DNA from: a virus
Lineage: Duplodnaviria; Caudoviricetes
Virus record (IMG/VR): IMGVR_UViG_3300050335_000039
Location: 14,811-78,810 of that record
Strand: one strand, 5' to 3'
DNA: 64,000 nucleotides
The notes below the pieces were generated by a model, which was given only the letters and a program-made list of their open reading frames with translations, ran no database searches and was not told the origin of the DNA. Positions 11,936 through 51,907 of this stretch are shown here, one piece after another; within the stretch, counting starts at the first letter, position 1; every line of letters begins with the position of its first letter. Made by a program: the position numbers and the translations under genes.

Positions 11936-13822
11936 TTATCCTTTACTCCAACAATTATCTATCTTTCCTTCAACTTTAGCTGGTACAATATCTTTTAGAA
12001 AAAATCTTTCTGGCTCTAACATTGAATTTTTTATAAACTCAAATGCCTCATTAGCTATATCTTTTCTAGCCATACAAACTATTTCATCATGTACTTGCAT
12101 TAATATTTTAAGTTTATCGTCTCCAAACGGGTTATTATAAAAAATATTACAAAGTGCTAATTTTGTCATGTCAGCACATCCACCTTGAATAACGTGATTA
12201 AATCCCTTCCTGCATATACTACCTTCTAACATTTGTTTTTCTTTGTAATCTTTATACAAAGTAGGTAAAGAAAAAAATCTCTTTCTTCCTATAGGAGTGG
12301 AAGAATATAGATTATTTAATACAAATTTAGATACAGCATCTTTATATAAAGATAAAGATGGATAGGCTTTTTCATAGAAATTTTTGATATATTTTTTTCC
12401 ATTTTCTAATGGAATTGAAAAATTTTTAAATAGACCCCACTCACTAATTCCATAAACAATACCAAAATTTAATGTTTTTCCTATATGCCTATCATCCTTT
12501 GTAACCCTATCTATATCAACTCCTAAAACAAGTGATGCAGTATTAGTATGAAGATCAATATCATTTACAAATGCTTTAATCATATTACTTTCTTTAAAAT
12601 TAACACATAGAAACCTAAGCTCTTGTTGAGAATAATCAAAAGTAATAATTACGTAGTCATCATCAGCAATAAAACACGTCCTATATTCACTTTCTCTAAC
12701 AATATTTTGTAGATTAGGATCACTAGACGAATATCTACCACTACGTGTACCAAGCTGATTAAAATTACTGTGAATTTTGCCTGTTACAGGATTTACATTC
12801 TCTATAAATTTTTCTCCAAAAGATGTTACTTTTTTAGATATACCTCTATAATTAATTATATCATTTATTAGTTTATTATTTGTAATTTTATTTAAAGTTT
12901 TCTCATTAGTATCTTTTAAATTTAACCCGTATATATTGTTTAGTATAGAAAGAACCTGTTTATTAGAGTTTAAATTTATATGGTCTCTAAGATATAACTC
13001 CATAAATGATGTTTCTTTAATTGATTTTAATAGCTCTTTATCGCTTTTTTTCTGTACAGGAATACACAGAAAATTAAATAAATCTAGTGCATTATCAAAT
13101 TTTTTATAATTAATAATATCTTTTACTATTTTATCCTTTAATTCGTTTGTAGAGGATTCTGTTTCGGAAATAGCTATTTCATCTAATTTTTTCCACGCAT
13201 CAACATCAAGTTTAATGCCATTAAATTCCATACTTGCTGTAACTGGAATTGTTCTATTTTCTAAATCTAAGACATTTAGCATTTTAGTTTCTTCAAATCT
13301 TTTATATTGCTTTTCCTTTATTATTTCAAGGTATTTTATATCATTATCTGAATATTCTAAAATATCCTCTGGTATATCATCTCCAACTTTATGTTCTTTA
13401 TAGAAATATTCTCTAACTTCTTTATCCAATGTAATACCACAATATTTCTCTACAAGTTCTTTTAGTGAATAAAATTGTTTTCCTATTCCGCTATAAGAAA
13501 GTATTTCTGCTATCATTGTGTCATATACATTTTTTAAATAGATTCCTGTAGCGGATTTTATGAATTTTATATCAAATTTTATATTATGACCTATTACAAG
13601 TTTATCTTCTATAAAACTTATATAATATGTTAATAATTTATTTCCTAATTTTTCAGCATTTAATATATAGGAGTTATTATTTATTTTTATTTGCACAAGA
13701 ATTAAAGTATTAGAATGACAATCTAATCCTGTAGTTTCCGTATCAAGAGATACTTGGTTTGCTGTAAAAATATCTTTTTGAAATTGACTAATATATTTTA
13801 AATCAGTAACATAATATCTCAA
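11936..13822 (-). CDS. polA: Family A DNA polymerase with 3'-5' exonuclease domain
   Basis: LDTET, GHNIKFD, SGRYSSSDPNLQNI, DYSQQELR, KTLNFGIVYG, QVHDE; TTG start. Confidence 0.95.
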   Translation of the reverse strand: MRYYVTDLKYISQFQKDIFTANQVSLDTETTGLDCHSNTLILVQIKINNNSYILNAEKLGNKLLTYYISFIEDKLVIGHNIKFDIKFIKSATGIYLKNVYDTMIAEILSYSGIGKQFYSLKELVEKYCGITLDKEVREYFYKEHKVGDDIPEDILEYSDNDIKYLEIIKEKQYKRFEETKMLNVLDLENRTIPVTASMEFNGIKLDVDAWKKLDEIAISETESSTNELKDKIVKDIINYKKFDNALDLFNFLCIPVQKKSDKELLKSIKETSFMELYLRDHINLNSNKQVLSILNNIYGLNLKDTNEKTLNKITNNKLINDIINYRGISKKVTSFGEKFIENVNPVTGKIHSNFNQLGTRSGRYSSSDPNLQNIVRESEYRTCFIADDDYVIITFDYSQQELRFLCVNFKESNMIKAFVNDIDLHTNTASLVLGVDIDRVTKDDRHIGKTLNFGIVYGISEWGLFKNFSIPLENGKKYIKNFYEKAYPSLSLYKDAVSKFVLNNLYSSTPIGRKRFFSLPTLYKDYKEKQMLEGSICRKGFNHVIQGGCADMTKLALCNIFYNNPFGDDKLKILMQVHDEIVCMARKDIANEAFEFIKNSMLEPERFFLKDIVPAKVEGKIDNCWSKG

Positions 13823-48839: not shown

Positions 48840-49332
48840 ATGTGGTGCTTAGATGATAACACAGGTTTATTAATAGATGTGTTAGATTTAGAAGAGGGAG
48901 GAGCATCAATCAGAGTTACAATTACACTAGATAGATATTATACACAAATTGGTAAAATGGCAAACACGAGTGTAATAATGTCATAATCAAAGCGTTGTAA
49001 TGTTATACTCTACTGGAGGTAAACAACTACACATTATAAGTGAAATTTCCGCAGAAGGTACTTGCTATACAGTAACAAAAGAAGGGGTAATAACGGAACA
49101 GAAATAAATATAAAATGTCTAAATAGAGAATATACATACCAAGGAGAAAGTAAAGTATATCACACAAATGAGAACAGCTTTATTACCAGGAGGTACAGGC
49201 CCTAAATCTGGCGGAGGAGTTGCTAGAGAGGGGTTAGAGTGGATTCTAAAACCAAATACGAAATATTCTCTAACAAATATAAGTGGAAACACAATAAATA
49301 TAGGAATAATAAACAGCTTTTATGAAGTATAA
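48840..49332 (+). pseudogene. Frameshifted remnant of a phage gene
   Basis: GGAGG SD plus ATG; protein-like segments in successive frames ending LLPGGTGPKSGGGVAREGLEWILKPNTKY...FYEV-stop. Confidence 0.5.
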
Positions 49333-49364
49333 AAAAGAGAGATAAAAACTCTCTCTTTTTTATT
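49331..49364 (+). terminator. Intrinsic terminator ending the late operon
   Basis: AAAAAAGAGAGA-TAAAAAC-TCTCTCTTTTTT. Confidence 0.7.
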
Positions 49365-49368
49365 TAAT

Positions 49369-49499
49369 CCGATAAGGAAACCAAAAAAAATTTTTATAGT
49401 TAAATTAGAAAATGAATAGTAAAAACTGATAGGGAAACCGAAAATTAAGTTTAGAGCCTACAAATATACCTATAGACTAGAAATACCGATAAGGAATTC
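49369..49499 (+). repeat. Three spaced copies of CYGATARGGAAWYC
   Basis: CCGATAAGGAAACC 49369, CTGATAGGGAAACC 49426, CCGATAAGGAATTC 49486, each followed by an A/T tract. Confidence 0.65.
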
Positions 49500-49565
49500 A
49501 AAATTTAATTATAGAGTCTTTAGGGTACACACCGGCGGCAAATCGGACAAAAAGGGTCAGATTTG

Positions 49566-49664
49566 TGGCAGAAAGGGGGGGGGCTGGAGCAAAAAAAAGT
49601 CGCTCCCCTCACGGGGGGCGTGGATTGAAACTGGCAGAAAGGGGGGGGGCTGGAGCAAAAAAAA
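49566..49664 (+). repeat. 33-bp exact direct repeat flanking the CRISPR repeat
   Basis: TGGCAGAAAGGGGGGGGGCTGGAGCAAAAAAAA at 49566-49598 and 49632-49664. Confidence 0.9.
49599..49631 (+). CRISPR. Solitary type I-C-like CRISPR repeat (no array, no cas genes in window)
   Basis: GTCGCTCCCCTCACGGGGGGCGTGGATTGAAAC: GTCGC start, 8-bp stem CGCTCCCC/GGGGGGCG, TGGATTGAAAC end. Confidence 0.85.
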
Positions 49665-49718: not shown

Positions 49719-49790
49719 CTACTCCGTTGCCTTGCCAAGGACTAGCAGAACAGCAGATGCAAGCAACAGAATAATTGGTATGACGTCCAT
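49719..49790 (-). CDS. 23-aa hydrophobic peptide
   Basis: MDVIPIILLLASAVLLVLGKATE; ATG overlaps the TAA of the upstream gene. Confidence 0.5.
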   Translation of the reverse strand: MDVIPIILLLASAVLLVLGKATE

Positions 49791-50149
49791 TACTGCTCCA
49801 AAATGCCGTCAACACTGACCACAGGCGATGACTGCGGGTACTGTATCTTGTTAACGATCAAATCACAGTACTCTAGCAGTACGGGCAGAGTCATGGTGCG
49901 TAATAAAACTTGCCCGTCGTACACGTTAGCTACATAGTCAATATCCGATGCCTTGCCGTCAGACAAAAGGTCGCAGTACGTCTGTACTATCTTAAAGCTC
50001 TCCAGCACGCTCTGGCCGAATGGATTACTCTGTGTTACTGTCTGGAGCGCAGACTTAAAGTTTGCGTACTCTCCATCCAGTCTAACCTCTGATATTTTTT
50101 TATCGCTACTTACCTTCATTAGTTTTGTAGTTTTAGTTTTTTCTGACAT
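49790..50149 (-). CDS. Hypothetical protein (119 aa), atypically GC-rich codons
   Basis: ORF with GAGG SD, own promoter and terminator. Confidence 0.65.
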   Translation of the reverse strand: MSEKTKTTKLMKVSSDKKISEVRLDGEYANFKSALQTVTQSNPFGQSVLESFKIVQTYCDLLSDGKASDIDYVANVYDGQVLLRTMTLPVLLEYCDLIVNKIQYPQSSPVVSVDGILEQ

Positions 50150-50253
50150 TTTTGATCCTCTTTCTCTCATTTAAGGGATGAGTCCCGTATGGTTTTTTTT
50201 AATCTATGTGTTTCCGGTAAATAATATTTCATTTTAATTTACCTCACTTTTTT

Positions 50254-50282
50254 AAAATAGCATACTCCATTGATTTTGTCAA
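50254..50282 (-). promoter_or_regulatory. Leftward promoter flanking the repeat array
   Basis: TTGACA-17 bp-TATTTT with TG extension. Confidence 0.7.
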
Positions 50283-50331
50283 TAGTTTTTTCGTTTTAAT
50301 TTAATTTTTTTCTTTTTTTTCGGATTCCGTG

Positions 50332-51229
50332 AGCCTGGATGGATAGCCTGGATAGCCCGGATGGATAGCCTGGATAGCCTGGATGGATAGCCTGGATGGA
50401 TAGCCTGGATAGCCCGGATGGATAGCCTGGATGGATGGCCTGGATGGATAGCCTGGATAGCCCGGATGGATAGCCTGGATAGCCCGGATGGATGGCCTGG
50501 ATAGCCTGGATGGATAGCCTGGATAGCCCGGATGGATAGCCTGGATGGATAGCCTGGATGGATAGCCTGGATAGCCCGGATGGATAGCCCGGATGGATAG
50601 CCCGGATAGCCCGGATGGATAGCCTGGATGGATGGCCTGGATGGATAGCCTGGATGGATAGCCTGGATAGCCCGGATGGATAGCCTGGATGGATAGCCTG
50701 GATAGCCCGGATGGATAGCCCGGATGGATAGCCCGGATGGATAGCCTGGATAGCCTGGATGGATAGCCTGGATGGATAGCCTGGATAGCCCGGATGGATA
50801 GCCCGGATGGATAGCCTGGATAGCCCGGATGGATGGCCTGGATGGCCTGGATGGATAGCCTGGATAGCCCGGATGGATAGCCTGGATAGCCCGGATGGAT
50901 AGCCTGGATGGATAGCCTGGATAGCCCGGATGGATGGCCTGGATAGCCTGGATAGCCCGGATGGATAGCCTGGATGGATAGCCTGGATAGCCCGGATGGA
51001 TGGCCTGGATAGCCTGGATGGATAGCCTGGATAGCCCGGATGGATAGCCTGGATAGCCCGGATGGATAGCCTGGATGGATAGCCTGGATAGCCCGGATGG
51101 ATGGCCTGGATGGATAGCCTGGATAGCCCGGATGGATAGCCTGGATAGCCCGGATGGATAGCCCGGATGGATAGCCTGGATGGATAGCCTGGATAGCCTG
51201 GATGGATAGCCTGGATGGATAGCCTGGAT
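50332..51229. repeat. Irregular tandem array of about 78 RGCCYGGAT(GGAT) units
   Basis: Entire stretch parses into GGAT, AGCCT, AGCCC and GGCCT blocks; count by hand. Confidence 0.95.
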
Positions 51230-51271
51230 ATATATTAAATGAAGAAACTGTGAACATACATAGTACCATAA

Positions 51272-51300
51272 TTGACATAGGATAGACTATGTGATATACT
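51272..51300 (+). promoter_or_regulatory. Rightward promoter flanking the repeat array
   Basis: TTGACA-17 bp-TATACT with TG extension. Confidence 0.8.
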
Positions 51301-51341
51301 TAACATTATGTCTACCTATCTGCCTATCTACTTATCTCTTT

Positions 51342-51390
51342 CTCTCACGAGACAATTAAGGCAAGACATGTCTCGTGAGAGTTTTTTTTT
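51342..51390 (+). terminator. Strong promoter-proximal intrinsic terminator
   Basis: 13-bp stem CTCTCACGAGACA/TGTCTCGTGAGAG followed by T9. Confidence 0.85.
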
Positions 51391-51412: not shown

Positions 51413-51907
51413 ATGAAAAAAGATTTGGAATATTACCAGAGCAAGTGCAAAGAAACGGAATCATTATGTATCGAGGGCAGGAAAGTTTTCAAATTAAATT
51501 ATGGCAGAACGCAGAAAATTTTTCTTGGTCATCTAGAGGATGATTCAATCAAATCCAATTGGCTAAAACCAATTGGACACAGGGTTAAATCCAATGCTTT
51601 TAATGGTAATCATTACGGCAAAAAGCGAAGTAAAATTAAAAAATATTTATCTAGCGAATATCAGTATTATCATTGGATTAAATTCTGTAAAGAATTAAAT
51701 GGTAATACTAGTGATATTTACTATGACCTTGTAGGGGGATGTAGCTTTAAAATAGACCACATTTTAGAATTAGGTGAAATAAGAAAAATATCCGGCGGGG
51801 TATTTTTATCATTCATAGGGGATCATAAATTAGAGATTAGAATCTTGCGTGAAAGTGGAAGCAAGATTTTATACAAAACAGTATATAAATACGAATTATC
51901 AAGATAA
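51413..51907 (+). CDS. Hypothetical early protein
   Basis: ATG 51413 with GGAG SD; the longer track start lies inside the terminator leader. Confidence 0.6.
   Translation: MKKDLEYYQSKCKETESLCIEGRKVFKLNYGRTQKIFLGHLEDDSIKSNWLKPIGHRVKSNAFNGNHYGKKRSKIKKYLSSEYQYYHWIKFCKELNGNTSDIYYDLVGGCSFKIDHILELGEIRKISGGVFLSFIGDHKLEIRILRESGSKILYKTVYKYELSR

Follow-up and report, generated by a model that had tools for sequence, protein, structure and literature searches.

The direct repeats of iteron origins titrate or load a protein and, in the lambda ori, P1 incA/incC and P4 ori/crr, consist of units of 17–22 bp, present in 3–10 copies, which are helically phased and lie beside an initiator gene. The heptads of the pSM19035 omega system, the 11 bp iterons of R1 parC and the 6 bp iterons of pB171 parC are bound by small ribbon–helix–helix proteins. 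Such operator and centromere arrays act as double-stranded DNA, comprise 4–18 head-to-tail, spacerless, non-coding units and have a recognizable binder, usually together with a ParA, ParM or TubZ motor; arrays of the operator or centromere type usually lie just ahead of a small gene's promoter. In the lytic phages of the T7 group, terminal clusters of short, oriented, non-coding units are located where the last late genes meet the first early ones, and arrays of this type are reportedly 5–10 times shorter than the one described here. The ends of several lytic phage types fall between the late operon and a host-type promoter. Blocks of tandem repeats near the genome termini are mentioned for poxviruses (PMC5977245), non-coding satellites have been described in prokaryotes, where they are rare (PMC6749651), and the tandem repeats of Borgs are perfect, lineage-specific and recently formed (PMC9879509).

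The array described here is set apart from these satellites and arrays by its two-length grammar, its size and its GC contrast. It occupies positions 50332–51229 (+ strand) of the window, the whole stretch of 64 000 nucleotides that was analysed, which corresponds to bases 14811–78810 of a 78 810 bp IMG/VR virus record. A regular-expression parse accounts for every one of its 898 bp as 78 head-to-tail units, in which AGCCT, AGCCC or GGCCT is followed by GGAT: 43 are AGCCTGGAT, 27 are AGCCCGGAT and eight are GGCCTGGAT, while GGCCC is absent. An extra GGAT is present in 49 of the 78 units, giving unit lengths of 9 or 13 bp. The sequence-only reading, which had proposed about 78 units at this place and only these three variants, is thereby borne out to the base. 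Its further claims were equally accurate: AGCCC has an almost fixed successor (the extra GGAT comes next in 26 of 27 such units), a 22 bp block, AGCCTGGAT+AGCCCGGATGGAT, recurs in 20 copies, every unit contains a CCNGG site (51 CCTGG and 27 CCCGG) and the GC content is far above that of the genome (58.2% versus 29.0% in the remainder of the window).

The order of the units is non-random and hierarchical, following a grammar built from 22 bp blocks. With T denoting the 9 bp AGCCT unit, A the 13 bp AGCCT unit and B the 13 bp AGCCC unit, B comes after T in 20 of 23 instances and T after A in 13 of 19, the triplet ATB occurs 11 times and (A)TB almost invariably comes after the uncommon GGCC units. 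The longest exact internal duplication is 100 bp, and TRF, with scores of 594–873 at periods of 13, 22 and 35, finds no other large tandem repeat in the 78.8 kb genome, of which the array makes up 1.1%. Its orientation is uniform, as a 22-mer pattern was matched 38 times in the forward direction, never in reverse and never by a reversed-pattern control, and the G-rich strand is the plus strand. The edges are sharp, with neither decayed copies outside nor a single off-grammar base within the 898 bp. The head-to-tail non-coding copies, the higher-order blocks and the restriction to one lineage are those of a minisatellite. The array is a genuine non-coding satellite of unproven function, a curiosity rather than a conserved phage element, and a single unreplicated instance.

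With iteron origins the array shares direct repeats, here with a putative role in titrating or loading a protein, and AT-rich DNA on both sides. It differs from them in its 78 units of 9 or 13 bp and in the lack of helical phasing of the unit starts (vector strength 0.09 at 10.5 bp and 0.17 at 11 bp), and its neighbourhood contains no initiator gene, the DnaB-like helicase, DNA polymerase and recombinase being encoded at 6.5–13.8 kb of the window, more than 35 kb away. With ribbon–helix–helix operator and centromere arrays it has in common the head-to-tail, spacerless and non-coding arrangement, the location just ahead of a small gene's promoter, with 50 bp between the array and the −35 element of an ORFan cassette, and the proposed action as double-stranded DNA. 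However, those arrays have 4–18 units rather than 78, and in place of a recognizable binder and motor there is an ORFan without a DNA-binding signature in a lytic-looking phage. In searches of the genome for a partition NTPase, the only CbiA matches were sub-threshold and fell in the genes for the recombinase and the helicase, tubulin was absent, and the outcome for ParM carries no weight, as the control of that search was silent; an integrase was likewise not found; neither a partner NTPase nor signs of a plasmid or lysogenic lifestyle were found. The lack of helical phasing and of an initiator or partition gene, together with the unit size and a unit number about tenfold above that of known iteron or centromere arrays, weakens the origin and segregation readings of the array.

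The clusters of the T7 group are likewise non-coding, composed of short oriented units and placed at a late/early border in a lytic virus, but they are much shorter and belong to a different type of genome. The parallel with T7-like phages drawn in the earlier reading does not hold for this phage, which encodes a tape-measure protein and siphovirus-type tail proteins. The poxvirus terminal blocks resemble the array in their short, oriented, non-coding units. Borg repeats and prokaryotic satellites are, like the array, perfect, recent, independently arisen and missing from relatives. However, each region of Borg repeats keeps to a single unit length, and a genome has many of them, whereas the array is single and has two unit lengths (9 and 13 bp), and its grammar and its strong GC richness within an AT-rich genome are further differences. 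Several motif resemblances were considered and set aside. That to the DnaA box is confined to a TGGATA core (6/9) without CACA; alignment with the E. coli Chi sequence (GCTGGTGG versus GCCTGGATGG) requires two insertions; filling in the overhang left by FokI (GGATG, 9/13 cut) gives duplications of GATR and not of the observed GGAT; Noc and LytTR sites were dropped as numerology; and, with regard to G-quadruplexes, the array contains GG runs only.

The phage is siphovirus-like, with genes for terminase, portal, capsid, tape-measure and tail proteins, and its replication genes encode DNA polymerase I, a DnaB-like helicase and a UvsX-like recombinase. No integrase was found and, judging from its gene content, the phage looks lytic. 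Its terminase is 25% identical to that of the nearest cultured phage. A single N6/N4 methyltransferase is encoded far from the array (contig positions 12314–12886), and neither a reverse transcriptase nor a C5-methyltransferase was found in the genome. In IMG/VR the record is listed as linear and as lacking end repeats. The last 127 nucleotides of the contig are an exact copy of contig positions 75–201 (G000:C1, 1–201 versus 78684–78810), an identity that points to assembly with a k = 127 graph and to a circular-like map. The record is therefore probably a closed circular-like map of about 78.6 kb with a 74-nucleotide alternative branch, and not an 87%-complete fragment.

This mode of assembly bears on the array itself. 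A graph with k = 127 loses internal duplications of at least 127 bp, so that 898 bp is a minimum length, and the longest internal repeat, at 100 bp, lies just below that limit. The locus could thus be real while its length or unit order is wrong, the array having been collapsed or mis-threaded in the short-read graph. All of its 127-mers are unique, however, and the path through it is consequently unambiguous; moreover, an artefact would not be expected to yield a clean three-variant grammar with sharp borders, and both flanks belong to one genome, which makes such a distortion quite unlikely. Evidence for the last point comes from six palindromic words (GATATC, GTATAC, CATATG, TGATCA, GGWCC and CGCG) that are absent from the late arm, from the minus arm and from the module to the right of the array, although about 20 copies of the six together would be expected in the right module alone. 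This common avoidance signature indicates one coherent phage genome and rules out a chimeric join at the array. Across the genome, the observed and expected counts are 0/26 for GATATC, 0/20 for GTATAC, 0/18 for GGWCC, 0/17 for CATATG, 0/14.5 for CGCG, 0/14 for TGATCA, 0/8.5 for TCCGGA, 8/36 for GCWGC and 93/187 for GATC; GANTC and CCWGG are not avoided.

To the left of the array, the plus-strand structural operon ends with genes for a GH25 endolysin, a PAS protein and a coiled-coil protein, and is closed by a terminator hairpin at 49329–49363 (+), which also forms the left limit of an island. Between this late terminator and a CRISPR repeat, and nowhere else in the genome, are three 32-nucleotide repeats led by YGATARGGAA (49369–49517, +), spaced by 57 and 60 bp. 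A solitary type I-C CRISPR repeat (GTCGC..stem..GTGGATTGAAAC; 49599–49631, +) and a counter-oriented ORFan gene occupy a GC-rich part of the island at about 49.5–50.1 kb. The repeat is located about 700 bp to the left of the array and is flanked by identical 33-mers (49566–49598 and 49632–49664) and followed by a hairpin; the hairpins beside it double as T-run terminators of the minus-strand ORFan gene. Its type was confirmed against 27 viral contigs, 17 of which carry the repeat as a single copy.

The ORFan (49790–50170, − strand, 126 amino acids, GC content about 47%) probably starts at 50149, behind AGAGGA, which would give a protein of 119 amino acids. Its cassette is self-contained, with its own promoter, a ribosome site and two terminators. 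The promoter, of the σ70 type (50254–50282, −), matches the consensus with TTGACA-17-TATTTT and an extended −10 TG, and it is from its −35 element that the left edge of the array is separated by 50 bp. At a distance of 245 bp from the array, the ORFan gene contains a single array-like word in inverted orientation, GGTTAGACTGGATGGAGAG (50069–50087, −), which matches GGATAGCCTGGATGGATAG at 16 of 19 positions. It is the best match to an array 19-mer outside the array in the entire genome, on either strand, with 0.05 such matches expected per genome.

On the other side, 43 bp past the right edge, lies a strong promoter (51272–51300, +; TTGACA-17-TATACT, extended −10 TG, 11 of 12 consensus positions), whose own spacer contains one GGATAGAC word. 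It is followed by an 84-nucleotide leader, or small RNA or attenuator (51307–51390, +), by a first gene at 51413–51907, with a product of 164 amino acids, and then by a module of small uncharacterized genes. The leader contains three CYTATCT words at 51311–51337, the complement of GATAG-type words, and a 12 bp stem (51342–51353/51370–51381) that precedes a run of nine Ts and is terminator-like. The ORFan mRNA has, around its ribosome site, the complement of a 12-nucleotide word of the leader, CTCTTTCTCTCA; the link was dropped, as it is not significant for a CT-rich word. Both promoters fire away from the array, as had been claimed. The main cluster of perfect consensus promoters is found elsewhere, at about 14.6–15.7 kb and 35 kb from the array; in place of a late/early boundary, the site is therefore better described as one where the late operon adjoins a module with a promoter of its own.

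An ATG-to-stop frame runs across the entire array on the minus strand (50301–51278), from which a repetitive protein of 325 amino acids might be read. All three minus-strand frames are open, however, as a consequence of a unit without stop triplets, and the 13 bp units shift the frame 49 times. The frame has no ribosome site, its ATG falls inside the opposing promoter and its GC content is 58%, against 29% in real genes; the best Pfam match scores 18.7 bits, below the curated cut-off of 24.3, and the exact sequence is missing from a collection of 15 billion proteins. The array accordingly lacks the unit length in multiples of three, the ribosome site and the family or homologues of protein-coding tandem repeats, and a gene here is extremely improbable. 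A structured RNA was also rejected: 300 nucleotides of the array fold 8.3 (plus strand) and 7.0 (minus strand) standard deviations worse than dinucleotide shuffles, no Rfam family matches the array, and no consensus promoter reading into it was found. The roles put forward in the sequence-only reading were a platform for protein loading in packaging, origin function, segregation or DNA entry, a sink for methylation or restriction, and a spacer of variable length; what these results support is only the premise common to them, a non-coding feature at the DNA level. The only Rfam match in the window is a tRNA. A tRNA-Tyr with the unusual anticodon ATA was called at 1922–1995.

Among the three public collections searched, the array appears to be unique to this genome. 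The exact unit 22-mer has no match in IMG/VR (records very near this genome being outside the search), a degenerate 22-mer was matched once in JGI metagenomes and once among 185 579 species genomes, both times as an isolated chance occurrence outside any array, and a blastn search of the 49–53 kb region against 50 697 phage records found nothing. No relatives were reached through the ORFan, the first right-hand gene, the endolysin, a 1234-amino-acid tail protein or a 260-amino-acid amidotransferase; the endolysin sequence is also present in a second contig or Logan assembly. Terminase kin were identified at 59–66% identity, of which a single genome, at 60%, reaches the junction. This relative is collinear with the phage from the terminase to the tail fibre, but where its lysis genes give way to the following module it has no tandem array and instead carries a promoter and a cluster of tRNA genes. 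Read by eye, its junction (L023, 13650–15480) consists of a consensus promoter followed by about ten tRNA-like genes. For a conserved position of the array among relatives, which the earlier reading had named as a test, the outcome is thus negative but thin, as it comes from a single junction-spanning relative. The tRNA cargo indicates that the site tolerates arbitrary inserts.

The growth of the array by replication slippage or unequal exchange is well supported by its internal order. It may then be a recent minisatellite without function, in which a slippage-prone seed at a plastic intergenic spot expanded to about 900 bp and has not been purged. The 20 copies of the TB block, the 11 ATB triplets and the duplications of up to 100 bp are what unequal exchange would produce, the array is found in this genome alone, the relative carries tRNA genes at the same junction, and fast, lineage-specific growth of perfect tandem repeats is documented in Borgs (PMC9879509). 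The word CCSGG adds to this, with one copy observed outside the array against 12.2 expected, whereas the array contains 27 of the 28 sites of the genome, all as CCCGG. Such a load of an otherwise avoided word is more in keeping with a recent feature free of selection than with an old one under selection. On the other hand, phage genomes are compact, so that 1.1% of junk would be unusual, no other large tandem repeat exists in this genome, and drift alone leaves the inverted word in the ORFan gene and the position between two promoters unexplained. Since the array is unique, its site plastic and its CCSGG load high, a functionless expansion, though doubtful by itself, is nearly as likely as the reading that we rank first.

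That reading, which is tentative, predicts that the array is a young, DNA-level, multi-site platform or sink for a protein. It is ranked first on the basis of the perfect units, the single orientation, the site upstream of the cassette promoter and the inverted site within the cassette. The array would have grown recently through slippage or unequal exchange of 22–100 bp blocks, leaving about 78 identical sites in the same orientation, with the core GGAT(A/G)GCCYGGAT, that would act as double-stranded DNA. A sequence-specific DNA-binding protein, for which the adjacent ORFan is the first candidate, would coat them to form a nucleoprotein block or sink of about 900 bp, filling the gap between the outward promoters where the structural/lysis operon borders on the next module. 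The putative role of the complex may be promoter control by looping, insulation of the modules or titration of a host factor. Protein binding, the identity of the binder and the role of the complex are all matters of inference.

The start of the array 50 bp upstream of the −35 element of a self-contained cassette favours such a platform, and the inverted GGTTAGACTGGATGGAGAG in the ORFan gene is as would be expected of a second operator or a looping site. The absence of any off-grammar substitution in 898 bp implies either a very young array or a constraint on each position; the perfect homogeneity is equally explained by youth. Against a platform stand the lack of helical phasing, the absence of the array from the relative and from all collections searched, and a number of units that exceeds about tenfold what is known from iteron, operator or centromere arrays. 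Nor was a binding protein identified among the ORFan and the neighbouring small genes, the latter having neither a recognizable DNA-binding domain nor a family match. For the ORFan, a word-indexed search and a full HMMER search over 1.84 billion representatives retrieved only the ORFan itself, the sole other match (P0002) being a spurious tandem-repeat protein, and there was no match in Pfam (E up to 10), PHROGs or the ESM Atlas and no DNA-binding family. Its single-sequence AlphaFold2 model is unusable (pLDDT 40), and its language-model recognition score is low. RNA structure in the ORFan region is not significant on either strand (z of −1.8 and −1.5).

The strict orientation of the array, with one G-rich strand, its position precisely in the gap that separates the last of the late (lysis) genes from a strong promoter of the host type, and an assembly that is circular-like, as in terminally redundant or permuted genomes, would also be compatible with a physical end of the genome beside the array. 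Its units might then serve in end formation, in DNA entry or in a Chi-like protection of the end, the last being read along the G-rich strand, starting at the right end. The phage, however, is not T7-like, T7-type arrays are far shorter, and the main cluster of perfect promoters is 35 kb off, and a role in packaging or at a terminus is unlikely.

The idea of a restriction sink put forward by the sequence-only reading gains one new fact, as CCSGG is avoided outside the array and is present 27 times inside it. The array could also be the third part of an anti-defence island, together with the solitary I-C repeat and the ORFan cassette. At the DNA level, clustered CCSGG sites would engage or stall a site-specific host nuclease or methylase. 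At the RNA level, a plus-strand transcript would mimic the 5′ handle of type I-C crRNA some 50–78 times and soak up Cascade subunits. Between the I-C 3′ handle, TGGATTGAAAC, and the array word TGGATGGATAG, 8 of 11 positions agree on the same strand (p about 0.04), and 11 of 14 agree for the GGCC variant, a likeness that is suggestive only. The solitary repeat lies 700 bp leftward, RNA from the array would be unstructured and handle-like, and nearly all CCSGG sites of the genome are within the array. Yet no plus-strand promoter was found upstream of the array, a counter-oriented gene separates it from the repeat, the conserved GAAAC end of the handle is unmatched, a p value of 0.04 is weak, and cleavable sites in cis would harm the phage. 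With units of 9 or 13 bp and neither spacers nor a stem, the array also departs from CRISPR arrays and solitary repeats (23–50 bp, with a stem, and with spacers or alone). We know of no precedent for a decoy of this type, nucleic-acid sponge arrays of this kind being, to our knowledge, undescribed in phages. The established action of solitary CRISPR repeats as RNA anti-CRISPRs (PMC10651486) speaks for a decoy, which on balance is nonetheless very unlikely.

Should a protein or a defence complex prove to bind the units, no larger array of sequence-specific binding sites would be known from a phage. The array would then help to show how, in an uncultured phage, the boundary of the late genes with the module that follows is controlled or protected, and its two-length grammar would be a natural case of tolerated spacing variation in a cooperative DNA–protein filament. 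If, instead, it is only a young product of slippage, a compact lytic phage can bear about 1% of satellite DNA, including 27 copies of an avoided restriction-type word, and the array would be a useful marker of strain turnover and a caution for short-read assembly.

A link between short-unit arrays and solitary I-C repeats was considered and set aside, as only one of the 27 contigs with this repeat type (L045) has such arrays, and these are of a different, dispersed kind. The contig (positions 1–4074; record G005, 86 114 bp with direct terminal repeats, CheckV completeness 100%, GC content of the locus 57%) is from an unrelated GC-rich phage with a mini type I-C array, in which one repeat is identical to the solitary repeat of the window over 32 nucleotides. 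It has 48 matches of combinatorial heptamer arrays (GACGATG/GACGATA), which are distributed over several intergenic regions in both orientations, often as inverted pairs.
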